Below are positions 18,577 through 44,825 of a stretch of DNA of 62,389 nucleotides, piece after piece. The stretch lies in contig VXOP01000361.1 of the NCBI GenBank assembly GCA_009839975.1, positions 1-62,389 on the forward strand. Direction: 5' to 3'. The notes beneath the pieces were generated by a model. That model searched no databases. It was not told the DNA's origin and saw only the letters and a program-made list of their open reading frames with translations. Each line of letters opens with the position of its first letter. The first letter of the stretch is position 1. Source of the stretch: Candidatus Poribacteria bacterium. GTDB taxonomy: Bacteria; Poribacteria; WGA-4E; WGA-3G. The position numbers and the translations under genes are program-made.

Positions 18577-18630
18577 CCCTCCATCTTCTTACAGACAATT
18601 AAGGGAAAGATTTTGATTTTTTCTCTTGTT

Positions 18631-18655
18631 TAGACTGATATTTTATATCGGTCTA
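18631..18655 (+). other. Candidate lox-like site 2 (same orientation as site 1)
   Basis: TAGACTGATA-TTTTA-TATCGGTCTA with the same conserved flanks. Confidence 0.45.
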
Positions 18656-18836
18656 TTTGTATTGCATCGTCCTATAGTTCAGAGGCACGGATGTTTTATC
18701 TTTGTTTTTCTACAGCAGGGATTGCAGGGACTGATGTAACCACCACCCGATAGTCAACGATTATCAGAAAGTTGACAAAATGTGTCCATATTCTGCTAAA
18801 ATACGAACACCTTAAAATGTCAAGGAGACTTAAGAA

Positions 18837-19810: not shown

Positions 19811-20728
19811 TCACCCGCTCTTACCATACTTATATCTTGCGATTGCACCGCGTTCTGCCAACTCCGCCCTCGCATAATGCGCGGGCATCTGTGGACTCTT
19901 CCATCTACCCGCTTCCTGCATATTAACAACTGATGCACCTGCCTGCGCGAGACTCACAGCAGAACCCACACGGAGAGAATGCCCCGAGATGAAACCGTCA
20001 AACCCTGCTGCATTTGCCCGCTTTACGATGATCTGTCGTGCAGATTGACACGTGAGTCTTTGTCTTTGGATATGATCTCCGCGTCGTATTCTTCTAAATA
20101 ACGCACCTTCAGTTATACTTGCACCAGTCCGGTATCGTGTCAATATCTTACGTGTGTCTTCACCCACATAAAGAGACTCACCGATGCCCGTCTGATCTGT
20201 CTTGCTTTTCCTAATCAGTAAGGTTTGCTTCTCAAAATCCGATATGTCTACTGCTACGACTTCAGCAACCCGCAGCAGACAATCAGACATCAAGCGAATC
20301 ATAGCACTATCACGAAGCCCTGCAACCGTCCGATCTGATTCAGCGAAAGCACAGACACGTTCTACTTGAGCCCATGTCAAGCCATCAACTTGCCCGCGTC
20401 CTCTGTCTTTCCCTTCGCGACGGATACCTGCAAGCACCCCGTTTGTCAGCGTGAGTTCTAAATCCGAATTGCCAGAATACTTTGCACGCCAGCGGACAGC
20501 ACTCACCACTTTTGCAATTGTGCCTGGAGATCTACCAACTTCATGCAGGTGTGTAAGGTATTCAGCCAACAGCACATCATCTAAAGACCTATCACCAAGC
20601 CACGAGGATAAAGCAGCCAAACAGCCACGATATCCCCGCAGTGTGTTCTCAGAGAGGGCCGATGCCAAAATTTTTTTTGTATTTTCCTGGACTGGCAGCC
20701 CGCTTGTTGCTTTCTGTAGTTTGTCCAT
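19811..20728 (-). CDS. Cre-like tyrosine recombinase
   Basis: C-terminal SGHSLRVGSAVSLAQAGASVVNMQEAGRWKSPQMPAHYAR carries the HxxR...W...Y catalytic signature and closely resembles Cre GHSARVGAARDMARAG...GGW...NY. Start chosen at MDKLQK. Confidence 0.8.
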   Translation of the reverse strand: MDKLQKATSGLPVQENTKKILASALSENTLRGYRGCLAALSSWLGDRSLDDVLLAEYLTHLHEVGRSPGTIAKVVSAVRWRAKYSGNSDLELTLTNGVLAGIRREGKDRGRGQVDGLTWAQVERVCAFAESDRTVAGLRDSAMIRLMSDCLLRVAEVVAVDISDFEKQTLLIRKSKTDQTGIGESLYVGEDTRKILTRYRTGASITEGALFRRIRRGDHIQRQRLTCQSARQIIVKRANAAGFDGFISGHSLRVGSAVSLAQAGASVVNMQEAGRWKSPQMPAHYARAELAERGAIARYKYGKSG

Positions 20729-20835
20729 CTTGCGCCTATTGGATAATAACTCATGATTTACACAAAAATCAATACCTAAATATAATACAGAATACCACAA
20801 ATCAACGGAAAATGCCCACCTACATTCTTTTCCGC

Positions 20836-22101
20836 TTACCGTTCCGCTAACTTCGCAACTAAATACTCCTGCCCCCGATTGCCTTTGATGCGGTTACAAT
20901 TGCCACAAAGCAATTGAAGGTTGTCAATATGATCCGTTCCCCCGACTGATCTCGCTATTATATGGTCTATCTCCAGGTGCTGAGCCTCAAAATGTGTGTT
21001 GCATCCATTACAATTACCTGCTTGTTCTCCATACAGAAATTTTTTGTTAGCAGAGGTGTTGTAAGGTGGTGTATTTCCTAAATCTGTGCGGCGTGGAATA
21101 TCTGTTCGGTGTATAATATTTTGAAACAAGCCTTGATCTGTTTTAATACGGTCAACAACTAAGTCAACTGCCTTTGGTGATATGTCAATGCCAACCCAAT
21201 TCCGTTGTAAACGCTCTGCTGCGACACACGTTGTAGCACACCCACAAAACGGATCAAAGACAATACCATCCTTATTACTGGACGCTTCAATGATAAGTTC
21301 TAATAGCGCTGATGGCTTTTGCGTGGGATAACCTGTATATTCTCTTGCTTGACTATTTAAAACTGATATATTCCACACATCGCTGATGGCTTTACCTTCT
21401 GGCATTGGAACATCATATATCGTCCTCCCTTCCTGCTCCCATGTAGGTAGCCTGCTTTTCACCTTTGGATTTTCTCTGTCATATATCCGAACAATCTTCT
21501 TCCCGCTACTTGATCCTGCATTATATCCAGCAGAAATTAACTGCTTTTGGCGTTCTGTTAGTTCACCGTATTGTTTATTGAAGATATAATTATCTGTAGC
21601 GGAATACATCATAATGATGTCGTGGTTGCGCTGGAAGTAACGCGCAGTATTTGTCCATTTTTCATAATGCCACACAATTTCATTCCTAAAGTTTTTCCTA
21701 CCAAAGATTGCATCCATTAGCAACTTCAGATAATGCGACATTGTTGGATCACAGTGCAAGTATATACTCCCATCTGTTTTCAAGATACGGTGCATTTCAA
21801 GCAAACGGGTTGCCATGTAAATCAGATACGATTTATCGGAATCTGTCATAGATGCTTGGATAACACGGTTAACAGCAGGATATTTGGTCTCAATCAAGTC
21901 AAGCCATGCAACATCTAAATCATTGAGTGACCATGTATCCTTGAATTCCGCACCTGCTGCTTGTGATCCGATAGGTGCAGCATAGTTAGCATTGCTATTG
22001 AAAGGCGGATCCAGGTATATCAAATTAATGCATTCAGAATTGATGCCGCGTAAAATAGGTAGGTTATCACCTGTGAATATTGTCTTGTTTGCTATGTTCA
22101 T
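20836..22101 (-). CDS. Beta-class N4/N6 DNA methyltransferase fused to a C-terminal HNH domain (paralog 2)
   Basis: GAGG RBS before the ATG at 22101. DPPFNS, then DPFCGCATT. C-terminal CNGC...IDHIIARS.GGTDHIDNLQLLCGNCN. Confidence 0.8.
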   Translation of the reverse strand: MNIANKTIFTGDNLPILRGINSECINLIYLDPPFNSNANYAAPIGSQAAGAEFKDTWSLNDLDVAWLDLIETKYPAVNRVIQASMTDSDKSYLIYMATRLLEMHRILKTDGSIYLHCDPTMSHYLKLLMDAIFGRKNFRNEIVWHYEKWTNTARYFQRNHDIIMMYSATDNYIFNKQYGELTERQKQLISAGYNAGSSSGKKIVRIYDRENPKVKSRLPTWEQEGRTIYDVPMPEGKAISDVWNISVLNSQAREYTGYPTQKPSALLELIIEASSNKDGIVFDPFCGCATTCVAAERLQRNWVGIDISPKAVDLVVDRIKTDQGLFQNIIHRTDIPRRTDLGNTPPYNTSANKKFLYGEQAGNCNGCNTHFEAQHLEIDHIIARSVGGTDHIDNLQLLCGNCNRIKGNRGQEYLVAKLAER

Positions 22102-22261
22102 CGGTTCATACCTCAAAGTAAAACATTGTGTAACGCGTCTTTTTTCATTATATCACAAATGGACAAGTTGAAGTAAAGCTGAATGATTTTTACCATCCAA
22201 CTTTTTCCCGGTACCACATTCTATCCTCCTTGAGTATATATGCGTTATTTTATTAATCATC

Positions 22262-22968: not shown

Positions 22969-23201
22969 CATTTGTTCTTCTTATACCCTATTATCATGTC
23001 GGTTTCGCAAGTTCTACCCGACCTACAATTACAGTGAAATTCAGAAGTATATGCACAATTTCGGTCCAATGGATATAAACCATTATACTGAAAGGTTTAA
23101 TAATGTCTATTTATGTGTTTTGATTTTTGATGTGTTATCAAGAATCTGAAGTACAATCTTGTCCTGATATAAAACTGAGCAAATACTCAGGAGGTATTGA
23201 A

Positions 23202-26200
23202 ATGATTATTGCAAATATGTTCAGATGGAAATATACGTTAATATCAATTAGTGCGGTGTTTATACTTTACATAATTCATTTTAGTAATATAGCATATTCA
23301 ATTCCAGTAAGTGAACGGACAGAGCAAGTTCAGGAAGAAATTAAAAGAGCCTTAGATATAGATGAGGTTTCACAAATAACTGATGCACATCTTGCACGTA
23401 TTACTGCGTTAAATCTTAAAAATAAAGATATTCACAGTTTAAAATCTGGTGATTTTGAAGGTTTATCAGGATTAAAAAACTTGAATTTATTTGGCAACAA
23501 TCTTGATGTATTACCTAATTCAATATTCTCTGGATTAAAGTCTTTAACAGTGCTTCGGTTAGGTGGTAACAATACATATCCACTTCAGACACCCATAAAA
23601 TTGGAAAAAATATCGGATGGCGAGTTTAGAGCGGTTGTTATAACAGCTGCGCCCTTTGATATAGAATTAGATATTAATATAGTGAATGGAACTACGAAGA
23701 ATTCAAAGATTACCGTAAACAAAGGTAGCACCTATAGTTCTATTTTGAATGTTGAGCGAATATATGGAACAACAGATATAGTAACTGCAGAAATAAAAGT
23801 ATTACCGCAATTACCAAAGTTCCATTATGGATATATATTTGTAAAATCTAATAGAAGCCCCATCAACGTTATTGATAAAGTTGAAGTAATTATTGATAAA
23901 ACGCCAGACGACAACGTGGTAGATGAAGTTATAGAAGAAGATGAAGTACAGGATGATAGTTTAGATAATCAAGAACCAGAAATAGAAACATCAGAAGTCC
24001 AAAATGATATAACCAATAATCCTCCCTATTTTGGGACCAACAATATATTTGTTCGATACATAGAAGAAAATGTTATAGCAGGCATCAATGTTGGTATGCC
24101 GATTACTGCCATAGATCAAGATCCGAATGATACATTGATATATAGTCTTGATGGATTAGATCAAGAATCATTTAGTATTGATTCAAAAAGCGGTCAAATA
24201 CTAACCAAACTGCCGTTGGATTATGAAAGCAAAAATTTGTATATTGTCAGGGTAGTTGTTTCTGACTATAAGGATAAAAATTGGGTTTATGTTGTTATAA
24301 AACTCATAGATAAGAACGATGGCAGGACAAACTTTGTGGAAGATTTTTTAGATATAAATGAAAGAACGCCAGCAGTTCAAGATGCAATTATTAGTGCAAT
24401 TCCAAATATTGATAATGCAGAAAACATAACTGTTGACCATCTTGAATCTATTACTGAACTTAATTTACGCGGGGCAGGTATTACACAATTAAAATCAGGC
24501 GATTTTTCAGGTCTTCACGGATTAACGAATCTAAATCTATACGGAAATATGCTCAGGAGACTTCCCGAGGATATATTTAACGGATTGATCTCACTAAAAT
24601 CGTTGCGCCTGGGTAGGAATATATTTGATCCCTTGCCAATTCTTGTATCATTTCAGAAGATAGAGTTTGACAAATATCAAGTCGTAATACCAACTGGAGC
24701 ACCTTTTGATATAAATATGTTGGTTAACAATAATACTTCTATTGATACTGTCAGGATCAAAAAGGGCGATACAAGAAGTAACGTTTTCACTTCTAAAGGC
24801 ATTCCAAAAATTGAACAGTTACCAACATTACCTCGTAATCATTTCGGATATACTATATCACAATCTACAGTGTGTCATAGAAGTGAACAAGTTATAAAAG
24901 GAATTACAAATTCGTTAGGTCAACCTGATTGCCGACTTATAAGCGACCTTGATCTACTATTAATTAGAGATTTAGATCTTAGCGGTATGTCTATTGAATC
25001 ATTAAAGTCATTCGATTTTTCGGGATTATTAATGCTGAACCACATTGATCTGAGTAACAATAAACTATCTAAACTTCCGGAAGGTATATTTGATAAATTG
25101 ACCAGAATTCAATCACTTAACTTACATAATAATCGTTTCGATCCATTACCAATAACATTCTTATTGGAAAAAGTCGGTAAAGACCAAATAAAGATAACTA
25201 TACCCGTATGTGCTCCATCTGAAATGAATATACCAGTGAGCGTTAAGGTTGGCGAAATTGTAAGTAATAAATTTATAGTACAAATATCTACTGGCAATTA
25301 TGAAAGTGATCTCTATACAATAACCAGACCCGATGATACATTAGATTATATTTATGTGGATATTGTTGATCCTATTGATATACCTAATACACATAGTGGA
25401 TATACATTTATAGGAAATACGAATACACCCTTAGAAATTTTTGAACGCATAAATGTTGCCCCCGTTTTCGTTGAAGGTGAAAAGACAAATCGCAATATAG
25501 CAGAAAATACGGACTCAGGCGAAAATATTGGAATACCAATTACAGCTACGGATATAAACAACGATAAACTGAATTATACGATTACTGGACAAGATGCACA
25601 GTCCTTCAGTATTGATAATAGCAATGGACAGATCATAACAAAGTCTCCACTCGATTATGAGACAAAATCAGAATATTCTATAATAGTTAATGTGTCAGAT
25701 GGTATACTAACAACTAGCATAATTGTCGCTATAAAAATCGATGATGTATATGAAAATATATATCCAGTTTTTGTTGAAGGCGAAAATACAACGCGTAATA
25801 TAGCAGAAAATACGGATATAGGTATAGGTATTAATGCTATAAAGGCGACAGATGCTAATGAGAATGATACATTAGAGTACACGCTTAGCGGTACAGATGC
25901 TTCACGTTTCAAAATTGATAGTGCCTCCGGGCAATTGATAACAAATTCGCAACTTGATTTTGAAACAAAATCATCTTATTCAATTATTGTCCATGCATCA
26001 GATAATAACGGTGGCACAGATTCTATCACAGTTAAGATTATAGTAAACGATGTCAACGAAGCACCTGTATTTATATCAGATCTATCAACACGTATAACTA
26101 TAGACGAGAATATAACTACAAGAACAAATATCGGTAAATTCACTGCTACGGATGAAGACAAAGATGACATTCTAAAATGGACTATAACCGGTGAAGAGGC

Positions 26201-29200
26201 ACAATATTTCCACATCATATCTACTACAGGACAACTTCAAACAAAATCACCACTTGATTATGAAACAAAATCTTTATATACATTTGATGTAAACGTATAT
26301 GATAATCACGGTTTGAGTGATACCATTAGTGTTGATATTGAAATAAGTGATATTGATGAAAATACTGCACCTGAATTTATAGAAGGTGAAACCGTAAGTA
26401 GATATATAGCAGAAAATTCTAATGCCGGTATAGATATCGGGTCTCCAATTACAGCTCGTGACAGTGAACAAGACTCACTTGTCTATACCATCCAAGGCAC
26501 AGATGCAAATACATTTGATATTATTAGCACGACTGGTCAATTAAAAACAAAAGATTCTTTGGACTATGAATTTAAGAATTCTTATTCAGTCCAAGTCATT
26601 GTATCTGACGGTAAACTCACTGATACAATAACGGTTACAATATATATTAATGATGTTTTTGAGATTGTAGATATAGAACCTGATATACCCGAAACTACGC
26701 AACCTGATATACCCGAAACTACGCAACCTGATACATCCGAAAACACGCAACCTGATACACCCGAAAACACGCAACCTGATACATCCGAAAACACGCAACC
26801 TGATATACCTGAAACTATAGAACCACAAACACCTCAAAATAACGCACCATATTTTATTAGTGGTATTCCTACATCACGTTCTATAAATGAAAATGTTCCG
26901 ATAGGCACAAACATTGGCAACCCTATAACCGCTAAAGATGATGACGATGGTGACAAATTGACGTATAGTTTGATAAATTCAAGTGCTGCCCCTTTTGAAA
27001 TTGACGCTACATCAGGCCAAATTAAAACAAGCACAAATGTAGATCATGAAAACAAGAATTCATATACTATAACAGTTCAAGTTTCTGATAGTAAACTGAC
27101 AGATACTATAGCAATCACTATTAATATAATAGACGTAAACGAAGCACCTGTTTTCAATGCTGGTAATACTGCAACACGTTCAGTGTTAGCAAATACCGAT
27201 AGTATTACTAATATTGGAAGCGCATTTTCAGTATCGGATGACGATGGAGATGCACTCACATGGACATTAAGTGGTACAGATGCAAGTTCATTTAGTATTG
27301 ATGATAAAGGTCAACTGAAGACTAAAGATAATATCGATTATAGTTTAAAACAATCCTATGCTATAACAATCACAGTATCTGATGGCACCTTAACTGATAC
27401 GATTAAGGTTACGATAAACACTATAGATACAAATGAAGCACCTGTTTTTGCATCTGATACTACTACCCTTGAAATTGCTGAAAATACAGCATCAGGGGTT
27501 AACATAGGAAGCCCTATCACAGCAACGGATGCAGATAATGATACACTTACATATACACTCAGCGGAACAGATGCAGCCGCATTCAGTATTCAAAGCACAT
27601 CTGGACAAATAAAGACTAAAGAATCAACAGATCATGAGACGAAAGATACTTATGAAGTCATAATCACCGCATCAGATGGGAACAAATCAGACACTATCAC
27701 TGTTACCATTGAAATAAAAGATGTCAATGAAGCACCCGTTTTCACAGACAGTAGTGATATTACGCGTGAAGTAAATGAAAATACAGCACCCAATGAAGAT
27801 ATTGGTGATTCTATAGATATATCCGCAACAGATCCTGATGATGGTGATACACTGACGTGGACACTTGGAGGAACAGATGCAGCATCTTTTAATTCCGAAA
27901 TAGATTCTGATTCAGATACACTGCAATTAAAAACTGTATCGGCTCTTGATTATGAAACTAAAAATAGTTATTCATTGAAAATTATTGTATCAGATAGTGA
28001 TGGCTTAGAAGATGATATTTCTGTAACGATAAACATAAATGATGTATACGAAGCACCACCTAATAGCGCTCCTGTATTTACAGATGGTGCTAATACTGAA
28101 CGATCAATCGCTGAAAATACAGCATCAGGGGTTAACATAGGAAGCCCTATCACAGCAACTGATGCAAATAATGATACACTTACATGGACACTCAGAGGAA
28201 CAGATGCAGCCGCATTCAGTATTCAAAGCACATCTGGACAAATAAAAACAAAAGCAGCATTGGATTTTGAAACCAAAACTACATATACTATAATTGTTAA
28301 TGTTAGTGATGAAAAGGGTGGAACTGATAGTATTACTGTCACTATCAAAATTACCGATGTCAATGAAAATCCAGGATTTTTAGAAGAAAGTGTTACATAT
28401 TCTCTAAATGAAAATACGGCATCAGGTAAAAATATAGGTAAACCATCTGTGAACAATCCTAATAAGGATAACTTGATTTTTGAACTTAAGGGTGATGGAT
28501 CTAATGCTTTTGATATTGTTTCTAACACAGGTCAATTACGAACTAAAGATATATTCAATTACGAATCAGATCCTACAAGCTATTCTTTTCAAATTGACTG
28601 TAAATTAGGTGAAAATACTATTGATACAATTGATATTACTGTAAATATTAGAGATATCAATGAACCTCCAAAATTTAATATTAATGCTAAAGGTCTATCA
28701 AAAGAGTTTACTATTAGTGAAAAATTATTGTTCCCGACTATTAGTAACACTATTGCCATAATAGATGCTACAGATGAGGATGCTATAGATAATGAAGAAT
28801 ATACAAGACATAATATGCGTTATTCTAACAGATTGAAATATAAGATTGCAAGTAGCAATAGCAATCTTTTTACAATTGAACAAAGCACCATTACCTTTAC
28901 AGGAATAAACGTGTCAAAGACTGGTGGCCAGTTATATTTATATTACTCATCAGATGAAGAAAAATATGATACTGAAAAAACATACAAACTTAAAATTATT
29001 GTAGAAGATAGCAAGTTAGCAAGAGATTCTATTGATATTACAGTAAAAGTGAAAAAAAATAGTCCGCCATCATTTGTGGATGGTGATTCTACCACACGCG
29101 AAGTAAGCGCAACTGCAAATCTAGGTACTTTTGTAGGCGAACCTATATCTGCAACAGATCCTGATGGAGATAAACTTGAATATAAATTTGTTTATTTAAT

Positions 29201-29717
29201 TCCTGGAACTCAACATGAAGGTTTAGCTCCCAATATTCATAACTTTACAATAAACTCTGAAACAGGACAAATATCACTTGTAACAAATAAAGTTCTTCAA
29301 AGCTATGTAGTTACAGTTAATGTAACAGATGGAAAAGCGCGTGATAGAATTGACGTTACAATTAATCCTATTAGTTCATCTAATGCACCTTCTAATAATA
29401 TAGAACCGTTTAGACTTATTCCTACATCAACAGAATTATTACCGAATTATCCGAATCCGTTTAATCCTGAAACTTGGATACCGTATCAATTATCAGAAAG
29501 TTCTCATGTAGAATTAACTATATATGATATTAAAGGGGCTATCATAAGACATATAGATATTGGTCATAAAATGCCAGGCACTTATATAGATAAAATAAAT
29601 GCTATTCATTGGGATGGCTCTAATAATCGAGGTGAAAGAATTTCATCGGGAATTTATTTCTATACACTGAAGGCAGGTAAATATACTAAATCAAGGTCTT
29701 TATTGATATTGAAATAA
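23202..29717 (+). CDS. Giant (2,171 aa) surface adhesin: three LRR modules, about 14 cadherin repeats, a Pro/Thr-rich tandem linker and a T9SS/FlgD-Ig-like C-terminal sorting domain
   Basis: AGGAGG RBS before the ATG at 23202. N-terminal TM/signal sequence. LRR units (L..L.L..N.L..LP..IF.GL). Repeated cadherin signatures (NAPVF...I.EN...G..IG..I.A.D.D.D.LTY.L.G.DA..F.ID..SGQI.T...LD.E......I.V.D). C-terminal LLPNYPNPFNPETWIPY...GIYFY. Confidence 0.85.
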   Translation: MIIANMFRWKYTLISISAVFILYIIHFSNIAYSIPVSERTEQVQEEIKRALDIDEVSQITDAHLARITALNLKNKDIHSLKSGDFEGLSGLKNLNLFGNNLDVLPNSIFSGLKSLTVLRLGGNNTYPLQTPIKLEKISDGEFRAVVITAAPFDIELDINIVNGTTKNSKITVNKGSTYSSILNVERIYGTTDIVTAEIKVLPQLPKFHYGYIFVKSNRSPINVIDKVEVIIDKTPDDNVVDEVIEEDEVQDDSLDNQEPEIETSEVQNDITNNPPYFGTNNIFVRYIEENVIAGINVGMPITAIDQDPNDTLIYSLDGLDQESFSIDSKSGQILTKLPLDYESKNLYIVRVVVSDYKDKNWVYVVIKLIDKNDGRTNFVEDFLDINERTPAVQDAIISAIPNIDNAENITVDHLESITELNLRGAGITQLKSGDFSGLHGLTNLNLYGNMLRRLPEDIFNGLISLKSLRLGRNIFDPLPILVSFQKIEFDKYQVVIPTGAPFDINMLVNNNTSIDTVRIKKGDTRSNVFTSKGIPKIEQLPTLPRNHFGYTISQSTVCHRSEQVIKGITNSLGQPDCRLISDLDLLLIRDLDLSGMSIESLKSFDFSGLLMLNHIDLSNNKLSKLPEGIFDKLTRIQSLNLHNNRFDPLPITFLLEKVGKDQIKITIPVCAPSEMNIPVSVKVGEIVSNKFIVQISTGNYESDLYTITRPDDTLDYIYVDIVDPIDIPNTHSGYTFIGNTNTPLEIFERINVAPVFVEGEKTNRNIAENTDSGENIGIPITATDINNDKLNYTITGQDAQSFSIDNSNGQIITKSPLDYETKSEYSIIVNVSDGILTTSIIVAIKIDDVYENIYPVFVEGENTTRNIAENTDIGIGINAIKATDANENDTLEYTLSGTDASRFKIDSASGQLITNSQLDFETKSSYSIIVHASDNNGGTDSITVKIIVNDVNEAPVFISDLSTRITIDENITTRTNIGKFTATDEDKDDILKWTITGEEAQYFHIISTTGQLQTKSPLDYETKSLYTFDVNVYDNHGLSDTISVDIEISDIDENTAPEFIEGETVSRYIAENSNAGIDIGSPITARDSEQDSLVYTIQGTDANTFDIISTTGQLKTKDSLDYEFKNSYSVQVIVSDGKLTDTITVTIYINDVFEIVDIEPDIPETTQPDIPETTQPDTSENTQPDTPENTQPDTSENTQPDIPETIEPQTPQNNAPYFISGIPTSRSINENVPIGTNIGNPITAKDDDDGDKLTYSLINSSAAPFEIDATSGQIKTSTNVDHENKNSYTITVQVSDSKLTDTIAITINIIDVNEAPVFNAGNTATRSVLANTDSITNIGSAFSVSDDDGDALTWTLSGTDASSFSIDDKGQLKTKDNIDYSLKQSYAITITVSDGTLTDTIKVTINTIDTNEAPVFASDTTTLEIAENTASGVNIGSPITATDADNDTLTYTLSGTDAAAFSIQSTSGQIKTKESTDHETKDTYEVIITASDGNKSDTITVTIEIKDVNEAPVFTDSSDITREVNENTAPNEDIGDSIDISATDPDDGDTLTWTLGGTDAASFNSEIDSDSDTLQLKTVSALDYETKNSYSLKIIVSDSDGLEDDISVTININDVYEAPPNSAPVFTDGANTERSIAENTASGVNIGSPITATDANNDTLTWTLRGTDAAAFSIQSTSGQIKTKAALDFETKTTYTIIVNVSDEKGGTDSITVTIKITDVNENPGFLEESVTYSLNENTASGKNIGKPSVNNPNKDNLIFELKGDGSNAFDIVSNTGQLRTKDIFNYESDPTSYSFQIDCKLGENTIDTIDITVNIRDINEPPKFNINAKGLSKEFTISEKLLFPTISNTIAIIDATDEDAIDNEEYTRHNMRYSNRLKYKIASSNSNLFTIEQSTITFTGINVSKTGGQLYLYYSSDEEKYDTEKTYKLKIIVEDSKLARDSIDITVKVKKNSPPSFVDGDSTTREVSATANLGTFVGEPISATDPDGDKLEYKFVYLIPGTQHEGLAPNIHNFTINSETGQISLVTNKVLQSYVVTVNVTDGKARDRIDVTINPISSSNAPSNNIEPFRLIPTSTELLPNYPNPFNPETWIPYQLSESSHVELTIYDIKGAIIRHIDIGHKMPGTYIDKINAIHWDGSNNRGERISSGIYFYTLKAGKYTKSRSLLILK
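26679..26822 (+). repeat. Six tandem 24-bp repeats inside the adhesin gene (PDIPETTQ/PDTSENTQ units)
   Basis: CCTGATATACCCGAAACTACGCAA-type unit repeated six times in frame. Confidence 0.95.
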
Positions 29718-29756: not shown

Positions 29757-29854
29757 CAAACTATTCTTCAAAGTTATCAAGGATCAAATTATCAATGGCA
29801 TCTCACATGCATCTATACGATTTTCGTCTGACATTATATCTGACCAGACCCCGC

Positions 29855-30196
29855 CTATTTACGCTTCAGTCCATATATTGCTGCAGCTTCGGTATTGAAA
29901 TGTTCAAACATATTGATGAGCCGACTGCGGACGATCAGGTTTTTGATATTTTTCCCAACATGAATAATGGCAATCCGTCCATTTTTTGAGCGTGCCAGTT
30001 TGTAGGCACTCATGAGCGTGCCTAGTCCGCCACTATCCATTTTCTGCACGCGCTGAAAATCAATAAGAATAAGAGGTTTGTTCGCAGTATCTATCTGTTT
30101 TGTCATGACAGTTCGCATGTCCCGCACGGCTGTTCCTATAATGTTTCCAGTCGGTTGTAGGATAGCGATGTTGCCTTTTTTTCGTAGTGTTACCAT
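29855..30196 (-). CDS. STAS-domain protein (SpoIIAA/RsbV-like anti-sigma-factor antagonist)
   Basis: 113 aa. ...ILIDFQRVQKMDSGGLGTLM... matches the STAS DS.GLG region. Paralog at 41601..41945. Confidence 0.75.
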   Translation of the reverse strand: MVTLRKKGNIAILQPTGNIIGTAVRDMRTVMTKQIDTANKPLILIDFQRVQKMDSGGLGTLMSAYKLARSKNGRIAIIHVGKNIKNLIVRSRLINMFEHFNTEAAAIYGLKRK

Positions 30197-30272
30197 GTGT
30201 TCACCTCATATAAAGGGTTGATTGTTTGACAGAAACGCATATCGCTTATGTATCATGTATATTAGACAAGAC

Positions 30273-30360
30273 AAAATATCTTTAGCTTTTTTTCACGGGT
30301 AAAAAAAGTGTGTATCTGATAAAATATATGAACGTTTCTAAAAAAGAACTAAAGATTTTT
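30273..30360. promoter_or_regulatory. Conserved inverted-repeat operator in the STAS/sigma divergent intergenic region (pair 1)
   Basis: AAAATATCTTTAG (30273-30285) and CTAAAGATTTTT (30349-30360) flank a CTTTTTTT-CACGGG-TAAAAAAAG hairpin. Same layout as 41496-41553. Confidence 0.45.
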
Positions 30361-30443
30361 CTATAAAACACATATATTAAATATAGACAGTTTGTTTCAT
30401 ATGAACCGAACTGCAGATTCTAAGTCGTGTACGGGAGGTATAT

Positions 30444-31100
30444 ATGAATTGTCCAAGTGGTGGTCCCAGCCAACGCGGTAAATGTCCGTTTTATATTGTC
30501 CCGGATGATCCGCTCTCTGCGGATGCGTCTGTGAAACATTGTGTAGATGCTATAACAGCGAAAAATGATAGGTTACAAGGACTGAAAGAAGATTTTTATC
30601 AGATAGCGTATCTGGCACTATTAGAGGCTTTACCAGAATATAATCCATCTCATCCGAGTGGTGCAAGTCTGATTACGTTTGTGAAATCACGTGTCTGCAC
30701 GCGTCTCTGGCATGAACGTTCCAAAGCGTTATCACATATTCCATTTCCCACAGAGCCTTCTGATTGTTCCGGTTGCACAGGTGTGTGTTGTAGAAACCCG
30801 TTAGTTGCGGAGCTCACGCGTCAAGCGTGTTCACAAGAATCTATGGAAGACGAAGTTATTCGTCGACTTGAAGCGGAAAATCTCCGCAGATACTATCCAT
30901 TGCTGACTCGCAGGTTAAGCGAGAAAGAAAAAAGTATTCTGCAGCTAAAGTTTTTTGAAGAAAAAAGCGGTGTAGAGATTTCCAAGACACTGGGGGTCTC
31001 CGAGGGGCGTGTGAGTCAACTGACACAAACTGCCCTGGAAAAAGTCGGTAAAGCGTATTTTCTGCTATCGTTTGCTAAGAATCGCAACCCCTATATTTAG
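30444..31100 (+). CDS. Sigma-70-family RNA polymerase sigma factor with an unusual N-terminal GKCPFY motif
   Basis: Region 2-like YQIAYLALLEALPEYNP...FVKSRV. Region 4 HTH: LSEKEKSILQLKFFEEKSGVEISKTLGVSEGRVSQL. Paralog at 40782..41435. Confidence 0.75.
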   Translation: MNCPSGGPSQRGKCPFYIVPDDPLSADASVKHCVDAITAKNDRLQGLKEDFYQIAYLALLEALPEYNPSHPSGASLITFVKSRVCTRLWHERSKALSHIPFPTEPSDCSGCTGVCCRNPLVAELTRQACSQESMEDEVIRRLEAENLRRYYPLLTRRLSEKEKSILQLKFFEEKSGVEISKTLGVSEGRVSQLTQTALEKVGKAYFLLSFAKNRNPYI

Positions 31101-31133
31101 GCGCAGGCGGTGTGCCTAACTACGCAACGAACA

Positions 31134-31158
31134 TAGACCGATATAAAATATCAGTCTA
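31134..31158 (-). other. Candidate lox-like site 3 (inverted relative to sites 1 and 2)
   Basis: The reverse complement reads TAGACTGATA-TTTTA-TATCGGTCTA with the same flanks. Confidence 0.45.
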
Positions 31159-31325
31159 AATCAGAGAAAAAAATCTGACTCTTTTCCTTAAGTGTTGTCC
31201 TTTTAAACCGTTACCGCAACCGTTGTGGTTGTCCTGAACAGAAAAGAATCAAAAAATGCAAATCGTCCGCGTCTTGGGTCCTAATTAATTTTGAATTAGC
31301 TGCGCGTTACGCGAAATCGGGTTGT

Positions 31326-32438
31326 TTACGAACCCTTACTACCATTGCCTCCAACCTCCCTCTCCAAAACATCGTGCGCGGTATGGGTAACGCCCTGTGC
31401 GGTATGGGTAACGCTGTGTGTGCTATCGGTAACACCTAATTCCCGTTTAATTTGATGGTAATACTCATAAGCTTTTTCAAAAGCATCCCGCATAGACTTC
31501 GGCATCTGTGTGTAGCGCTCATGCTCCGATGTATTACGCCATATACCAAAACGCCGCGACTTTCTACGTTGAATCTGATTCGTTTCAACATTGACTCTCC
31601 ATAACTCGTTGAAGCTATAACGCCAATCACCATCCGCACGCATCTCCTTATCTTCAGGTGTCCGAACCTTCTTAACCTTCCGCTTGCGGAAAACAGGCTT
31701 CGGTTTCCCATCAGGTTTCGGATACAACTGATATACACCCGCCTCGTGCTTCTTGGACAAACGCTTAACTAAACCCGCTTTCGTGAGTTCTTTTATACAA
31801 TTAACGACCGTCTGCGGACTCATACCTACCCACTTGCGTATCTTGTCAATACTCAACGAATTCGTTATGCCCGTCTGCCAATCACTGCGATACTTCATGA
31901 CTATCCATACAACCGCAGACTTCCAACTTATATCACCAGAAAACAACCTTTCAAGAATACCGCCAACACCACGAGGTATCGCAAACTTCAACGGATTACC
32001 ATTTTTATCTGTCGGAACTTCGTCACGATCACAATTGTGATGCACAACCTCGTATATGCTACCCGTATTAATACCAACAGATAAAACAAATAACCAACCC
32101 TTGTCCTTCAAATCGGATAGCCGCTCGCGGATATAACGAACAGATACATCGGTAAGTTCAGAAAGCAGACGCAAACCCGTCCGCCACGTCTTACCCGTAT
32201 CATAAGTGCTACGATAATTAAATACACACAGCAATAAAAAATCAATAGAACACATCTCACCAGACAACAACTCCGATAACGCACTACTAAAACCATAAGG
32301 CAACTGCATCGTCGTCTCTACAGTTGGGTGAGGTATGTTGTATTCAGTCGACTCAACTAACTCAGGAGCCTCTAAATTATGACACGAAACAGGAACAGCA
32401 TTCAAAATGCCTAAACGCAAGGATGGATTTAGCACCAT
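31326..32438 (-). CDS. Rep-like double winged-helix protein (second complete copy)
   Basis: By my count it differs at 19 positions from the 12499..13665 translation. Confidence 0.6.
   Translation of the reverse strand: MVLNPSLRLGILNAVPVSCHNLEAPELVESTEYNIPHPTVETTMQLPYGFSSALSELLSGEMCSIDFLLLCVFNYRSTYDTGKTWRTGLRLLSELTDVSVRYIRERLSDLKDKGWLFVLSVGINTGSIYEVVHHNCDRDEVPTDKNGNPLKFAIPRGVGGILERLFSGDISWKSAVVWIVMKYRSDWQTGITNSLSIDKIRKWVGMSPQTVVNCIKELTKAGLVKRLSKKHEAGVYQLYPKPDGKPKPVFRKRKVKKVRTPEDKEMRADGDWRYSFNELWRVNVETNQIQRRKSRRFGIWRNTSEHERYTQMPKSMRDAFEKAYEYYHQIKRELGVTDSTHSVTHTAQGVTHTAHDVLEREVGGNGSKGS
31371..31433 (-). repeat. Three tandem 21-bp iteron-like repeats (copy C)
   Basis: Reverse complement of the GTTACC(C/G)ATA(C/G)CGCACA units. 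Confidence 0.8.
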
Positions 32439-32621
32439 CTTTCTTCTCCTATAATAAAAAAAATAGAATACACACACGCTTTTGCTATGCAACCCCTTGA
32501 CCTAACCCAGTCGGTAGGTGCGATTTCCCTATCGCACCAAACACTATCGGAAAATACAGGGATTCGTAAAAAAATGCATTTTTTACTTGACATATCCAAA
32601 ATTTTGTGGTATCCTACTTTT

Positions 32622-32666
32622 ATCAGTGTGGGGGTGTTGTGAAAGCAACCCCCCTTTCAATTTTTA
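32622..32666 (+). ncRNA. Predicted countertranscript RNA, copy C
   Basis: TTGACA (32587-32592), 17-nt spacer, TATCCT (32610-32615). Hairpin GGGGGTGTTG..CAACCCCCC (32630-32654), then TTTCAATTTTT. Confidence 0.45.
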
Positions 32667-32784: not shown

Positions 32785-33156
32785 CTACTGCTTTATCGCC
32801 CCCACGTTACTTTTTTTACCAACTGGGGATACAGACAGCACATCATCGCTTATCCAATCTAAACCAACATAGTTTATGTTTAGCAAATCGGAAAAGCCAG
32901 AATTATTTGTCAACTGTGTGATATTTCTACTTTTTATATCATACTTATAGATATTAGTCGGTGGTTGTGTATGACTAAATCGAACGTTCAGTTCCACCTC
33001 ATGTGCACTGAAAACGACAGACTCACCGTTATCCATCCAGTCAAGACCGTGGGCATGTAAGTTTTTGGGTATCTGCAACTTTCGGGTATTCTCGTCTTGC
33101 ATTCTGAATCGCGGATTATATGGATTTATCAGATTACACGGATTTTTTTCTCTCAT
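32785..33156 (-). pseudogene. Beta-propeller (PD40/TolB-like) protein fragment with a repeat-derived N-terminus
   Basis: YKYDIKSRNITQLTNN looks like a PD40 repeat. The first ~20 codons (NPCNLINPYNPRF) are encoded by a REP-like element. A separate short RBS-preceded ORF lies upstream. Confidence 0.4.
33103..33144 (-). repeat. REP-like dispersed repeat (AATCCG...GCGATTCAGA family)
   Basis: The minus strand reads AATCCGTGTAATCTGATAAATCCATATAATCCGCGATTCAGA. Related copies at 48544-48578 and 50429-50464. Confidence 0.7.
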
Positions 33157-36779: not shown

Positions 36780-36976
36780 ATCATGCGAGCCTCACGGCAT
36801 GCCTTCGCTTCCTTTTCATATTCAGGGGTATCTAACTTTTTGCCGTAGGTCTGAATATAGTATATATACAGATATTCCGCCTTGGCATATTCCTGTGTGT
36901 CCGTATCATCTGTTGGAAAGGGTGGTATCCATTCTGCGCTCCAGTGTCCACGTTCTTCTTGCTGCAAGGCAAGCAA
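36776..36976 (-). CDS. Small hypothetical protein (66 aa)
   Basis: First gene of an apparent minus-strand operon. Overlaps the next ORF by 4 nt. Confidence 0.35.
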   Translation of the reverse strand: MLALQQEERGHWSAEWIPPFPTDDTDTQEYAKAEYLYIYYIQTYGKKLDTPEYEKEAKACREARMI

Positions 36977-37021
36977 AACTCCGTTTACACGGTTCTCCTT
37001 TATTATCTGAAAAGAGGCAAA

Positions 37022-37690
37022 ATGAAAATGGGAAAACTACAGAGATCACAAGATGGCACGGTGTCCATCCAAACAAAAAAATATTAGCGTCGGCCGTCGC
37101 GCCGAACACACTCCGAGCATATAGTAGATGCTTGGTCGACCTATCTGCATGGTTGGGTGACAGGTCTATTGATGATGTGCTGTTGGCTGAATACCTTACA
37201 CACCTGCATGAAACTGGGAAGTCTCCGAGCACAATTGGACAGGTCGTAGCGGCTGTGAAATGGCGTGCGAAGTATTCTGGCAAATCCGATTTAGAACTCA
37301 CGCTGACAAACGGGTATCGGTGAGTCTCTTTATGTGTGTGATGACACAAGGAAGATTTTGAATAAATACGTAGCGGATGCAAAGATAACCGATGCTGTTT
37401 TTCGTAGGAGACGCCGCGGCGATCATATCCAAAAGCAAAGACTCACGTGTCAATCTGCGCGACAGATAATCACAAAGCGGGCAGAAGCAGCAGGTATTGA
37501 CGGCTTCATATCGGGTCACTCGCTCCGTGTGGGGTTCTGCGGTGTCTCTTGCACAAGCAGGTGCATCGGTTGTTGATATGCAGGTAGCGGGTAGATGGAA
37601 ATCATCACAGATGCCTGCACACTATGCAAAGGCAGAGTTGGCAGAACGGGGGCAATTGCGAGATATAAAGATGGGAAAAATGGATAACCT
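37022..37690 (+). pseudogene. Decayed Cre-like tyrosine recombinase
   Basis: Pieces in three frames match 19811..20728: MGKLQRSQDGTVSIQTKK / KKILASAV..LAEYLTHLHETGKSP..LTLTNG / ESLYV..GHSLRVG / SAVSLAQAGASVVDMQVAGRWKSSQMPAHYAKAELAERG. About 85 central codons are missing. Confidence 0.85.
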
Positions 37691-39667: not shown

Positions 39668-39710
39668 ACATCATGATCCTCCTTTACAGGACTAATTGTA
39701 CCGCGTTTAT

Positions 39711-39990
39711 GAAACCTTATTGCGAATTAACACTTACTTTTTGAGTCGGAAGTATCCGAACCAGTTGAATCTTTTCTTCGGTTTGGGTAGCATCAACATT
39801 TTTGTCTTTTCTTGTTCTGTCTTTAACATAGACAAGAGTTGTTTCTCTCGGTCTTTTGCGTCAGCGAGTTCAGCTTTAGTATCCGAGAGTTGTTTTTGCA
39901 TCAACTCAATCACGACGTGGGGTTGTCCGGTGTTATGCTGATGTCCATTCTCTGATATTTCTGGAGTCTCAGGTTGTCTGCGATTGTCTT
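39711..39990. repeat. ~280-bp direct repeat, copy R1
   Basis: Matches 44543-44825. The ORF track shows near-identical plus-strand artefact ORFs at 39696..39941 and 44420..44734. Confidence 0.85.
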
Positions 39991-40706: not shown

Positions 40707-40781
40707 AAGCAGCGTCACAAATTCACACACAGATGGTTTCCACTGTGAGTCTTCTTTATGATTTGATGTTTGCGATATGCG

Positions 40782-41435
40782 TTATGTGTTTTGATACGGA
40801 TTTCCGTTTTCTGTATCGAGTGCGTTTAGATATGCTTTACCGAGTTTTGCTAAAGCGGATTGTGTGAGTCGTGTTACGTATCCTTCTGTGATGTTGAGTT
40901 TTTCGGCGATTTGTTTGCCTTTACAAGCATCAAAGAACTTCATTTCAATTACCTGTCTTTCATTTTCTGAGAGTTTGTTCAGAAGTTTTGGTAAGTTATT
41001 GCGTAAGAACTCAACTTCGATTTTCTGTATTACATTATCAGCCATATTTTCTATGACACAAGCTTGTGCGAACAATCCGGTGACTAAGGGATTGTTTGGG
41101 GCATCGCTGTCTTCCTCATAACATTCTTGATGTGAGTAAGGTATCTCTCTAAGTATTTTTGTTCTTTCCTGCCATAATCGTGTGCATACCTTTGCTTTTA
41201 TGAAGGTTGTGTACGATGCTCCGCTTGGGTGATGTGGGTTATACTTCGGTGTTTCTTCAATGATTGTTAGGAATGCGATCTGTCGCAAATCTTCATTGTG
41301 AGAATGCATCTGTGTGCTTTTTCCACAGGCACAGGAGACACATTGATGCACCGACTTTTCTGCGGAGAGTGGGTTATCTGGTATGACATAGAAAGGACAT
41401 TTACCTCTGTTATTGGGACCTTGTAGTTGTGTCAT
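40782..41435 (-). CDS. Sigma-70-family sigma factor, paralog of 30444..31100
   Basis: Shares RGKCPFY(I/V)(V/I)PD.PLSA, NP.HPSGAS..TF.K..VCTRLW.ER.K and the region 4 HTH. Confidence 0.75.
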   Translation of the reverse strand: MTQLQGPNNRGKCPFYVIPDNPLSAEKSVHQCVSCACGKSTQMHSHNEDLRQIAFLTIIEETPKYNPHHPSGASYTTFIKAKVCTRLWQERTKILREIPYSHQECYEEDSDAPNNPLVTGLFAQACVIENMADNVIQKIEVEFLRNNLPKLLNKLSENERQVIEMKFFDACKGKQIAEKLNITEGYVTRLTQSALAKLGKAYLNALDTENGNPYQNT

Positions 41436-41495
41436 AGTTTGCCTCCAGTGACATGCGCGTTACATGTCGGTTTGTCTATTATATCATTTCTATTT

Positions 41496-41553
41496 GAAAA
41501 TCTTTACTAATTTTTTTCTACGGGCGTTTATAAAAAAAATAGTAAAGATTTTT
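41496..41553. promoter_or_regulatory. Conserved inverted-repeat operator in the sigma/STAS divergent intergenic region (pair 2)
   Basis: GAAAATCTTTACTA (41496-41509) and TAGTAAAGATTTTT (41540-41553) flank ATTTTTTT-CTACGGGCG..-AAAAAAAT. Confidence 0.45.
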
Positions 41554-41600
41554 ATTTTTGTGTGATATATAACGTAAAATGCTATTAGTGAGGTGTATTT

Positions 41601-41945
41601 ATGGACACGAGAGTTCGTTTTCAAGATGGCGTTGTTATCGTTGAACCTGTCAGTCGTCTGATAGGTGCGTCTATTGTTGAGTTGCGTGATACGCTCTATA
41701 GCGAAATAGGTCGTCACACATCTCCTCACATTCTTTTTGATTTCCATCGCACGCGTCGTATAGATAGTGGGGGTCTTGGTGTATTGCTGAATGCTCTTGC
41801 TTTGGTGAAAAAGCGCGGTGGCAGTCTTGGTGTGATGAATTTGTCGAAGATAAAGAGTTTGCTGATGCAGGGTCATCTTCTGCGGTGTTTTGAACATTAT
41901 GATGAAGAACATACCGCGGTATCTTGTCTGTTGCATGCTGCCTAA
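41601..41945 (+). CDS. STAS-domain anti-sigma-antagonist-like protein, paralog of 29855..30196
   Basis: ...ILFDFHRTRRIDSGGLGVLL... Confidence 0.75.
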   Translation: MDTRVRFQDGVVIVEPVSRLIGASIVELRDTLYSEIGRHTSPHILFDFHRTRRIDSGGLGVLLNALALVKKRGGSLGVMNLSKIKSLLMQGHLLRCFEHYDEEHTAVSCLLHAA

Positions 41946-41970
41946 AACATACCACTGCTTGATCTATCAC

Positions 41971-41994
41971 TTGTGGTCTGTCAGATATAATGTT
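41971..41994 (+). promoter_or_regulatory. 24-nt motif identical to one upstream of the other CC1 gene (contains TATAAT)
   Basis: TTGTGGTCTGTCAGATATAATGTT at 41971-41994 equals the reverse complement of 11832-11855. Confidence 0.5.
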
Positions 41995-42053
41995 ATACGA
42001 AAATTGTATAGATGCATGTGAGATACCATTTACACATCAAAGGAGAAATAAAG

Positions 42054-42941
42054 ATGTTATCCATCCGTAATAAGAAGTTAGTCCTTTTTGCTATTACGCT
42101 GTTATGTATTACGACCGTTGTTTCTGCTGTAACTTGGAAGGAACTTTACGCTGCCTTAGATGCGTTTCTAAATGCTAAGGGTGTATGGGAAACAGTTGAA
42201 GGGCAAATAAAGAGTCTTGAAGATGAAACCGAGTCTCTTCAGGCAAAAATTGACCAAGAAAATGAAGATGAACAAAGTGACAACGCATTAATTCTTCACA
42301 ATATGTATATGTCCTCAGTGTATGAGAAAAAAGTTGAGGATATAAAGGAGGATTTGACTGAAGCGAAGACTGACCTGGAGAAAAAGGATTCAAGACTATC
42401 CTCTGCAATAAGTTCTTATGAATTCAGTAAAATTTATGAAAAGAAAGCCAAAAAAGCGTATGACAACTATGTAAGGATGTGTGACGATCCTCGTTATTGT
42501 CAACCAGATTGCTATTATTGTAATGAACATCAGAGATTATATAAAGCGTGGCAGGATTGGAAAAAGGAGAGAGAAGATGCCAAAAAGGAACGTGACGCTG
42601 CCTTCAAAGAATATGTTCCAGCTTATAATTTGGTAGAAGCTATTGAAAAGTGGTTGAACTGGAATGAGCAGGAGCATCGTAAATATAGGGGTTTAGTCAA
42701 GTATTGGGAAAAAGCACGCGATGTTCATGTTGAGAAATCGAAAAAGCTTCAGACGAAATTTGATGAGAAAAATGCCAAACTTACAGAGAGAAGGACAAGA
42801 AAGCTTGAATTACGCGCGGCAACTCCCAGCGTCAGAATATATATGAATAATATTCTGGCAGCGTGGAAACTCCCCGATTTTGATTACGATAAATATATTG
42901 AGAAGAACCCACCTCCAGAAATCATATTTGCAAAGGAGTAA
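42054..42941 (+). CDS. Membrane-anchored coiled-coil protein (CC1 position)
   Basis: AAGGAG RBS before the ATG at 42054. TM helix plus charged coiled-coil-like sequence. Confidence 0.65.
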   Translation: MLSIRNKKLVLFAITLLCITTVVSAVTWKELYAALDAFLNAKGVWETVEGQIKSLEDETESLQAKIDQENEDEQSDNALILHNMYMSSVYEKKVEDIKEDLTEAKTDLEKKDSRLSSAISSYEFSKIYEKKAKKAYDNYVRMCDDPRYCQPDCYYCNEHQRLYKAWQDWKKEREDAKKERDAAFKEYVPAYNLVEAIEKWLNWNEQEHRKYRGLVKYWEKARDVHVEKSKKLQTKFDEKNAKLTERRTRKLELRAATPSVRIYMNNILAAWKLPDFDYDKYIEKNPPPEIIFAKE

Positions 42942-42945
42942 ATCC

Positions 42946-44542: not shown

Positions 44543-44825
44543 GAAACATTATTGCGTCTCCGAACTTACTTTTTGAGTCGGAAGTATCCGAGCCAGTTGA
44601 ATCTTTTCTTCGGTTTGTGTAGCATCAACATTTTCGTCTTTTCTTGTTCTGTCTTTAACATAGACAAGAGTTGTCTCTCTCGGTCTTTAGCATCAGCCCA
44701 GTTCAGATTTAGTGTCCGAGAGTTGTTTTTGTAGCAACTCAATCACGATCTGCGGTTGTCCGGTGTTATGCTGATGTCCATTCTCCGATATTTTTGGAGT
44801 CGCATTTTGTCTACGCTTGTCTTGC
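44543..44825 (-). pseudogene. Direct-repeat copy R2: 3' remnant of the 39734..40186 gene with a 1-nt insertion
   Basis: Minus-strand translation PKISENGHQHNTGQPQIVIELLQKQLSDTKSELG stops where copy R1 continues. The 5' part of the gene is absent. Confidence 0.75.

Follow-up and report, generated by a model that had tools for sequence, protein, structure and literature searches.

A 62,389-nt stretch of DNA from Candidatus Poribacteria (GenBank assembly GCA_009839975.1, contig VXOP01000361.1; hereafter the window) was analysed for two paralogous, divergently arranged gene pairs, A and B, in each of which a sigma factor gene and a STAS gene are separated by an inverted repeat. By comparison with homologous loci, each repeat was shown to consist of two copies of one apparently family-specific promoter facing apart. 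This promoter is most likely read by the sigma factor of the pair itself, and the kinase that would act on the STAS protein is most simply placed elsewhere on poribacterial chromosomes. The full model, in which a mobile sigma/anti-anti-sigma cassette with a promoter for its own sigma factor would be controlled by a kinase module encoded elsewhere, is assigned a probability of roughly 55%; its promoter part is well supported by the comparison. Poribacteria are uncultured sponge symbionts, and literature searches returned no paper on poribacterial sigma factors or gene regulation.

In a preliminary description of this DNA, two paralogous STAS/sigma pairs with divergent layout had been recognised. 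All four open reading frames (ORFs) were recovered at the positions given there, and both their families and their paralogy were confirmed (sigma-A and sigma-B, 47% identity, E 5e-73; STAS-A and STAS-B, 32% identity, E 3e-25).

29855-30196, minus strand: STAS-A, 113 aa; Pfam PF01740 STAS, E 6.5e-13, 48.8 bits (cut-off 22.6)
30444-31100, plus strand: sigma-A, 218 aa; TIGR02937, 59.3 bits (cut-off 42.9); Sigma70_r4, E 1e-11
40782-41435, minus strand: sigma-B, 217 aa; TIGR02937, 52.0 bits (cut-off 42.9); Sigma70_r4
41601-41945, plus strand: STAS-B, 114 aa; PF01740, E 6.7e-10, 39.1 bits (cut-off 22.6)

The inverted repeats claimed for both intergenic regions were found in pair A as well as in pair B. 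For promoter comparison, eight divergent intergenic regions were oriented alike. In each arm of these eight loci, an A-tract of 6-9 nt is followed, after 2-3 nt, by CTAAAGA(A/T)TT and then by a -10 element, TATA(A/T)AT, located exactly 17 nt after TAAAGA. The corresponding features of the window are listed below, with promoter scores obtained from a position weight matrix (PWM) that was trained on loci outside the window.

30274-30293 and 30341-30360: pair A inverted repeat, arms of 20 nt, 85% complementary
30286-30308: inner T7/A7 hairpin within the pair A inverted repeat
30256-30294, minus strand: STAS-A promoter, 30.2 bits; A-tract 30287-30293, -35-like CTAAAGATAT from 30285 to 30276, 17-nt spacer, -10 TATACA from 30261 to 30256
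30294-30339: inter-promoter spacer of pair A, variable in length and sequence among loci, containing the T7-CACGGG-A7 mini-hairpin
30340-30378, plus strand: sigma-A promoter, 40.4 bits; A-tract 30340-30345, -35-like CTAAAGATTT 30349-30358, spacer of 17 nt as counted from TAAAGA, -10 TATATT 30373-30378
41480-41520 and 41529-41569: pair B inverted repeat, arms of 41 nt, 76% complementary
41478-41517, minus strand: sigma-B promoter, 32.9 bits, conserved in the ortholog L036; A-tract 41511-41517, -35-like GTAAAGATTT from 41507 to 41498, 17-nt spacer, -10 TATAAT from 41483 to 41478
41532-41571, plus strand: STAS-B promoter, 33.2 bits; A-tract 41532-41539, -35-like GTAAAGATTT 41542-41551, 17-nt spacer, -10 TATATA 41566-41571

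Among the loci, 23 to 64 nt separate the back-to-back -35 elements, and the centre between them is not conserved; the dyad is therefore not a single operator, and the CACGGG loop is incidental. What had been described as a conserved palindromic operator thus resolves into two back-to-back promoters, each half lying 17 nt from its own -10 element, and the CACGGG / CTACGGGCG loop proposed as a conserved feature is not kept in sequence at other loci. A terminator function or RNA-level role of the hairpin was considered and rejected: its centre is upstream of both -35 elements and hence part of neither mRNA, and a terminator scan found nothing there. At one locus (L001, 6883-7860), both promoters of the divergent pair are doubled at a distance of 928 nt (sites 6883/6932 and 7811/7860). 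The STAS and sigma genes are consequently 1.19 kb apart, and a local duplication or insertion seems to have taken place.

In a PWM scan of the window, only the four pair promoters scored (30-40 bits), the next best site in the 62 kb reaching 10.2 bits. A regular expression with an A-run requirement identified 51 distinct sites in 0.8 Mb (loci plus window), compared with fewer than one expected; positions that it left unconstrained were also kept, namely C at position 0 (45/50), AAA at +17 to +19 and A at +23 (47/50). At least 26 of the sites are situated directly upstream of sigma genes. Others are found upstream of STAS genes in any arrangement (for instance convergent in L020 and in a STAS-then-sigma operon in L006) and, at other loci, in front of genes for secreted PD40/TolB-like beta-propeller proteins and N-terminally anchored membrane coiled-coil proteins. 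By PWM scan, the promoter precedes approximately 42 of 50 homologous sigma genes, with the -35 variants TAAAGAWT, TAAAGTTT and TAAACTTT, and single copies precede sigma genes lacking a divergent partner. No canonical TTGACA promoter was found for the four pair genes. A core STAS gene at the poribacterial locus L058 carries a TTGACA-N18-TAAAAT promoter; a general poribacterial housekeeping function of the motif was rejected on the basis of this promoter and of the confinement of the motif to the sigma loci.

Each pair forms part of a segment with sharp boundaries that recurs in an unrelated setting.

29858-31111: cassette A (STAS-A, bidirectional promoter, sigma-A), 87% identical (blastn) to 675-1968 of L057, another contig
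40727-41963: cassette B, 93% identical (blastn) to 7448-8694 of L036, on the Candidatus Poribacteria chromosome OZ242325.1

In both comparisons the flanking sequences are unrelated. Cassette A has its counterpart in L057 among ParA, RHH, HNH and methylase genes, and other cassette copies adjoin integrases, ParA/RHH genes and transposases. The mobile-element setting assigned to the window was borne out by the presence of integrases, a DnaB-like helicase, replication-initiator-like HTH proteins, ParA and methylase-HNH genes. Judged from these alignments, the cassette relocates between chromosomal and mobile-element settings. One sigma clade is fixed in place downstream of dnaG-rpoD and lacks a STAS gene.

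The class of the sigma factor was determined by profile searches and structure prediction. Region 4 is recognised by Pfam Sigma70_r4 (44.7 and 36.6 bits for sigma-A and sigma-B, respectively; cut-off 24.1). Region 2 is supported by TIGR02937, which is above its cut-off across residues 48-203 of sigma-A and 39-200 of sigma-B; Pfam Sigma70_r2 alone stays below its threshold (14.1 bits vs 24). In an AlphaFold2 (AF2) model of sigma-A, computed on a 99-sequence alignment (mean predicted local distance difference test score, pLDDT, of 82), helices 23-38, 48-65 and 76-97 form the sigma-2 bundle, followed by a poorly predicted linker (98-118), a short helix (119-130) and sigma-4 (helices 134-211). All Foldseek matches of this model were sigma factors, including SigB, SigD, WhiG, sigma-32 and FliA. 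Among solved structures, FliA is the closest relative in sequence (E 1e-13), and the alignment covers region 4 and regions 2.1-2.2. Sigma70_r3, expected for group 3 (SigB/F/G, FliA/WhiG), gave no match, and a single short helix is located between sigma-2 and sigma-4; the scores for TIGR02479 (FliA/WhiG; 54.7 bits vs a cut-off of 189.6, E 1e-14) and TIGR02980 (SigB/F/G; 44.4 bits vs 234.35) are correspondingly low. The two-domain architecture is that of extracytoplasmic function (ECF) sigma factors, without a match to any curated ECF subgroup model, and no anti-sigma-domain gene was found beside the sigma gene at any of approximately 50 loci. Because region 3 is absent and the scores fall far below the FliA/WhiG and SigB/F/G cut-offs, the cassette sigma is classified as a factor of ECF size whose region 4 is FliA-like and which lies outside every curated subgroup.

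At least 100 close homologs of 210-225 aa were collected, and all named ones belong to Candidatus Poribacteria. A pattern scan of 185,579 GTDB species genomes (one per species) yielded 51 full or partial loci, all in Poribacteria, with 1-5 copies of the family per genome. In an exhaustive hidden Markov model search of 1.84 billion representatives, only 18 clusters were retrieved at E <= 1e-30, along with a sister clade whose sole named member is poribacterial. The sister proteins (approximately 215 aa; P0188, P0189, P0194, P0195, P0202 and P0212) keep the KCPxY...CxxC...ICG cysteine pattern and possess one more N-terminal cysteine and a C-terminal ECQxxG motif. A viral origin of the sigma factor was rejected, as no member of the family was found in IMG/VR and PHROGs gave generic sigma matches only.

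The consensus for FliA is TAAAGTTT-N11-GCCGATAA (PMC7286023). The -35 element of the motif resembles the FliA -35 consensus, in line with the FliA-like region 4, and its -10 element is unlike that of FliA, as is sigma-2. In addition, the -35 variant follows the residue after RVSQ(I/L) in the region-4.2 helix, which is M or L in nine of nine TAAACTT loci and never so in 27 TAAAGA loci; a switch of both features within one clade is seen in L010 as compared with L008, L009 and L014. This combination of a FliA-like -35 element and region 4, a divergent -10 element and sigma-2, and covariation of the -35 element with region 4.2 makes the cassette's own sigma factor the most likely reader of the promoter. 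Sigma factor and STAS protein would then be positively autoregulated; in support of this, Poribacteria do have TTGACA promoters (L058), yet none precedes the four pair genes.

By sequence, STAS-A is a single-domain STAS protein of the SpoIIAA/RsbV type, and STAS-B likewise has a single domain. When aligned with SpoIIAA and RsbV, STAS-A and STAS-B both retain the phosphorylatable serine within the motif DSGGLG, corresponding to SpoIIAA S58 and RsbV S56. This residue is invariant in all 21 sigma-linked poribacterial STAS proteins (aligned with approximate SpoIIAA and RsbV reference sequences). A STAS homolog adjoins the sigma gene at about 20 of 50 loci, and the linkage is kept across four gene orders (divergent, sigma-then-STAS, STAS-then-sigma and convergent).

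The absence of kinase and phosphatase genes claimed for the window was upheld, with no RsbW/SpoIIAB-like or PP2C ORF detected using B. subtilis and poribacterial seeds. The suggested neighbourhood survey gave the same picture: at approximately 50 homologous loci, neither gene was found within 8-10 kb of the sigma gene (phmmer with Bacillus and poribacterial seeds; Pfam-annotated contigs). An initial phmmer search with approximate B. subtilis RsbW, SpoIIAB and RsbX sequences, regarded as a weak test, returned nothing, and a repeat in which the L058 RsbW-like and PP2C proteins served as queries gave no matches. Between co-directional sigma and STAS genes, no small FlgM-like or ASD-type anti-sigma factor was found; the only proteins encoded there are either secreted or anchored in the membrane by their N-terminus, the latter having hardly any cytoplasmic portion. 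Kinase and phosphatase are thus not encoded with sigma and STAS as in canonical partner switching. The nearest STAS protein outside the sigma loci (P0108; 58% identical to STAS-A) comes from a 66-member Candidatus Poribacteria cluster and is encoded in a syntenic core cluster of six assemblies (L058-L063; named members Candidatus Poribacteria). The gene order of this cluster is STAS, STAS, Usp, PAS histidine kinase, response regulator and response regulator-SpoIIE(PP2C), alongside an RsbW-like HATPase_c_2 kinase (143-151 aa) and a third STAS gene; no sigma gene is present in L058-L063. At L058 (10001-16501), the cluster resembles the RsbK-RsbY type of system and has no obvious output. A member of the sigma family (L047) is carried by OZ219753.1.

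The preliminary description had considered regulation without a kinase, and had named homologs that normally neighbour an RsbW-like kinase, the kinase then lying elsewhere in the genome, as evidence to the contrary. The latter is largely what emerged. Since the phosphorylatable serine is invariant and the nearest STAS protein belongs to a kinase/phosphatase cluster, a kinase encoded elsewhere is the simplest reading. In the resulting model, the cassette of approximately 1.25 kb would encode an alternative sigma factor and an anti-anti-sigma STAS protein of the SpoIIAA/RsbV type. The sigma factor would read both back-to-back promoters and thereby form a positively autoregulated unit with the STAS protein. 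The latter is predicted to switch partners with the putative RsbW-like kinase/anti-sigma factor and the response regulator-PP2C phosphatase of the separate core cluster: in its unphosphorylated form it would titrate the kinase away, thereby releasing the sigma factor. The arrangement would constitute a distributed network in which multiple, partly mobile sigma/STAS satellites are connected to a kinase/phosphatase hub that has no sigma gene.

A further property of the sigma factor concerns its cysteines. The shared N-terminal RGKCPFY...PLSA...CV segment, previously considered unassignable to a known sigma region, is real and conserved across 99 homologs. Much of it corresponds to the first sigma-2 helix (residues 23-38), so that only about 20 residues (RGKCPFYIVPDDPLSA) are extra; the AF2 model places these confidently within sigma-2 (pLDDT 87-95). 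The unusual cysteines noted there proved to be a conserved set over the same 99 sequences (C14 98/99, C33 99/99, C36 84/99, C85 98/99, C129 89/99). Sigma-B has the family-typical Cys13, Cys32-x-x-Cys35, Cys84 and Cys126, and sigma-A has Cys14, Cys33, Cys85 and Cys129 together with the clade-specific linker residues C108, C111, C115 and C116. All 15 sequences without C36 belong to the sigma-A clade and have gained linker cysteines (as CxxC in 11 of the 15), and a linker cysteine is absent in 82 of 84 sequences with C36. Such an exchange of ligands is suggestive of a metal or redox site in sigma-2, and a role of this kind remains plausible because of the unusual conserved set of cysteines in the N-terminus.

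Several observations weigh against the model of an own-sigma promoter combined with a distant kinase. The core kinase cluster is known from six other poribacterial assemblies and lacks the promoter motif, and an adjacent STAS gene is absent at about 30 of 50 sigma loci. The RsbW/SpoIIAB targets known to us are group-3 sigma factors with region 3, which the cassette family does not have. For the NCBIfam model ant_ant_sig (TIGR00377; cut-off 53.45), STAS-A is a near miss (48.3 bits) and STAS-B scores 32.7 bits. Autoregulation is deduced from the position of the motif, the analogy to FliA and a covariation that is partly confounded by phylogeny. Finally, the -10 element is a perfect housekeeping TATAAT, and TAAAGA agrees with TTGACA at three of six positions. 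On account of these last two features, recognition by the housekeeping sigma-A (distinct from the pair A protein of that name) with the help of an activator remains a rival explanation; CTAAAGAWTT would then be the site of a separate activator or repressor, and the regulon of the cassette sigma would lie elsewhere. The 17-nt spacing to the housekeeping consensus, an A-tract resembling an UP element and the lack of the motif in the core partner-switching cluster fit this proposal. It is nevertheless considered unlikely, given that within 0.8 Mb containing many other genes the motif rarely occurs away from sigma-family loci and the genes next to them, that the -35 element matches the consensus of the sigma class nearest in region 4 and varies with the region-4.2 residue, and that no candidate DNA-binding regulator is conserved at the loci. 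Far more improbable still is a true operator or cruciform for a dimeric repressor, or a structured nucleic-acid element. Its appeal stems from pair B, whose long arms (41 nt) fold well as DNA (z = -5.3), but the folding of pair A (z = -1.7) is equalled by about 5% of shuffled sequences. Moreover, the half-sites are spaced at 23-64 nt around unrelated centres, the element also occurs singly where there is no divergent partner, and the centre would not be transcribed.

As to the control of the sigma factor, the STAS protein could bind it directly as an anti-sigma factor or co-factor, which would make the two-gene cassette a complete unit. Such an arrangement would account for a cassette of just two genes that has sharp boundaries and moves as a unit between contexts, for a linkage that survives four gene orders, and for the lack of any kinase, phosphatase, FlgM-like or ASD-like candidate within 8-10 kb at approximately 50 loci; non-canonical STAS proteins with unknown direct targets do exist (PMC8256260). 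We consider it quite improbable in view of the invariant phosphorylatable serine, the closest paralogs in a canonical kinase/phosphatase cluster and the roughly 30 of 50 family sigma genes without an adjacent STAS gene. A limited literature search found no described direct binding of a STAS domain to a sigma core domain, and the fused STAS domain of sigma-SsdA has an anti-sigma domain as its binding partner (PMC10733313). The sigma factor might alternatively be controlled in cis, with its cysteine cluster serving as a zinc, iron-sulfur or thiol-redox switch and the STAS protein being accessory or directed at another target. Conservation of Cys14, Cys33, Cys36, Cys85 and Cys129 in 84-99 of 99 sequences, the ligand-swap pattern formed by loss of C36 and gain of linker cysteines, retention of the pattern in the sister clade and the confidently modelled position of the N-terminal segment in sigma-2 would all suit a switch. 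However, the spatial clustering of the cysteines is putative, a structural zinc site needs no sensing role, and the conserved STAS linkage and invariant serine would be left unexplained. As the sole mode of control it is slightly less credible again than direct STAS binding; it is compatible with the partner-switching model and need not replace it. Equally doubtful is a combination of the two, a kinase-independent unit in which a metal- or redox-sensing sigma factor, gated by Cys14/Cys33/Cys36 (or linker)/Cys85, would be the direct target of the STAS protein and through which mobile elements would impose their own transcription programme on their hosts.

Compared with known systems, the preferred model comes closest to partner switching in Rsb and Spo modules, especially to that of the RsbK-RsbY type. 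This type, described for Bacillus cereus, involves a CheY-PP2C phosphatase, and the poribacterial core cluster likewise unites a HATPase_c_2 kinase, a response regulator-PP2C phosphatase and a PAS histidine kinase. With RsbV-RsbW-SigB and SpoIIAA-SpoIIAB-SigF, the cassette shares a single-domain STAS protein with a phospho-serine and an alternative sigma factor that is co-regulated with it from an apparently sigma-specific promoter. It differs from the RsbV-RsbW-SigB systems in that the kinase and phosphatase are located in a separate, sigma-less core cluster rather than in the sigma operon and that the sigma-STAS unit is multi-copy and mobile, and from SigB/SigF in its two-domain sigma factor without region 3, its cysteine set and its score (44 bits vs 234). 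FliA/WhiG factors provide the best sequence match for region 4 (recognition helix SEGRVSQL in the cassette sigma vs SESRVSQL in FliA), and their promoters have a -35 element, TAAAG(A/T)TT, at nearly equal distance from the -10. Unlike them, the cassette sigma falls far below the family cut-off (54.7 vs 189.6), lacks region 3, bears conserved cysteines in sigma-2 together with a unique YDPxHPSGAS loop, uses a TATAAT-like -10 rather than GCCGATAA, and is associated neither with FlgM nor with a flagellar neighbourhood. Similarities to ECF (group 4) factors comprise the sigma-2/sigma-4 architecture of approximately 200 aa with a TIGR02937 score above cut-off, likely autoregulation and paralog expansion (1-5 copies per genome), whereas a co-transcribed ASD/zf-HC2 anti-sigma factor, an AAC/CGT-type promoter and a curated subgroup match are missing and control is apparently exerted by the STAS protein. 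In the sigma-SsdA/SipA system of Actinoplanes missouriensis, the STAS domain is fused to the sigma factor and the anti-sigma factor carries a STAS domain of its own (PMC10733313). There, too, a sigma factor is tightly coupled to STAS, with the kinase-type domain of the anti-sigma factor as proposed partner (PMC10733313); in the cassette, by contrast, STAS and sigma are separate, mobile genes and the kinase is unlinked.

The surroundings of the cassettes contain further repeats and element genes. A direct repeat of approximately 281 nt (39710-39990 and 44542-44823; 89-92% identical) bounds a 4.8-kb segment that comprises cassette B and two membrane or coiled-coil genes (42012-43968), and these repeats may delimit a mobile unit. 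A conserved sequence of about 51 nt with GTCAGATATAATGTT (29794-29844, 41980-42030 and 11832-11862) closely follows both STAS genes; it is also present upstream of coiled-coil operons at 42012 (plus strand) and 11753 (minus strand) and probably represents their promoter region; at cassette A only a remnant of it is left, beside a giant low-GC gene. This ORF (23127-29717; 2196 aa) has a G+C content of 33%, as opposed to 41-44% around it, and encodes LRR and at least nine cadherin domains, a C-terminal FlgD-Ig-like sorting-type domain and, in an in-frame 24-nt tandem repeat (26653-26844), the sequence PD(I/T)(P/S)E(T/N)TQ. It abuts the truncated end of cassette A and looks horizontally acquired. 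The hairpin element TAGACTGATATTTTATATCGGTCTA occurs three times (13818-13865, 18617-18670 and 31124-31171), once directly 3' of sigma-A, and may be a terminator or recombination site common to the elements.

A tyrosine integrase gene is intact at 19811-20800 and frameshifted at 36799-37650 (79-83% identical), both copies being near methylase-HNH or element genes. An inverted duplication (12357-13749 and 31242-32634; 1393 nt, 96% identical) contains a 388-aa HTH_36 replication-initiator-like gene, of which a third, 5' fragment is found at 8895-9097 and a distant paralog at 55765-56847, beside ParA (57294-57938). These copies suggest the presence in the window of several plasmid-like integrative elements that are related to one another. 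Paralogous N6/N4 DNA methylase genes fused to a C-terminal HNH domain are situated at 14655-16241 and 20836-22116, and a gene for a 1198-aa Eco57I/MmeI-type methylase (50531-54127) adjoins an FRG-TPR gene (48602-50368), a content resembling that of defence islands. Intergenic inverted-repeat elements of the form GTCTGAATCGCGGATT...AATCCGCGATTCAGAC (48395-48578, 33103-33135 and 50431-50463) may be similar to repetitive extragenic palindromic (REP) sequences or miniature inverted-repeat transposable elements (MITEs).

The analysis introduces a sigma factor family known only from Poribacteria, with a probable promoter code that combines a FliA-like -35 element with a TATAAT -10 element, and provides a first sketch of its regulon, which comprises the sigma factor itself, the STAS protein, secreted PD40-like propellers and membrane coiled-coil proteins. 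Given the cysteine ligand swap, sigma-2 may be a metal- or redox-binding domain, which to our knowledge would be unusual for a sigma factor. The poribacterial cassette is most likely a distributed form of known partner switching rather than a new kind, and its layout of hub and satellites would let mobile elements tap the signalling hub of their host.

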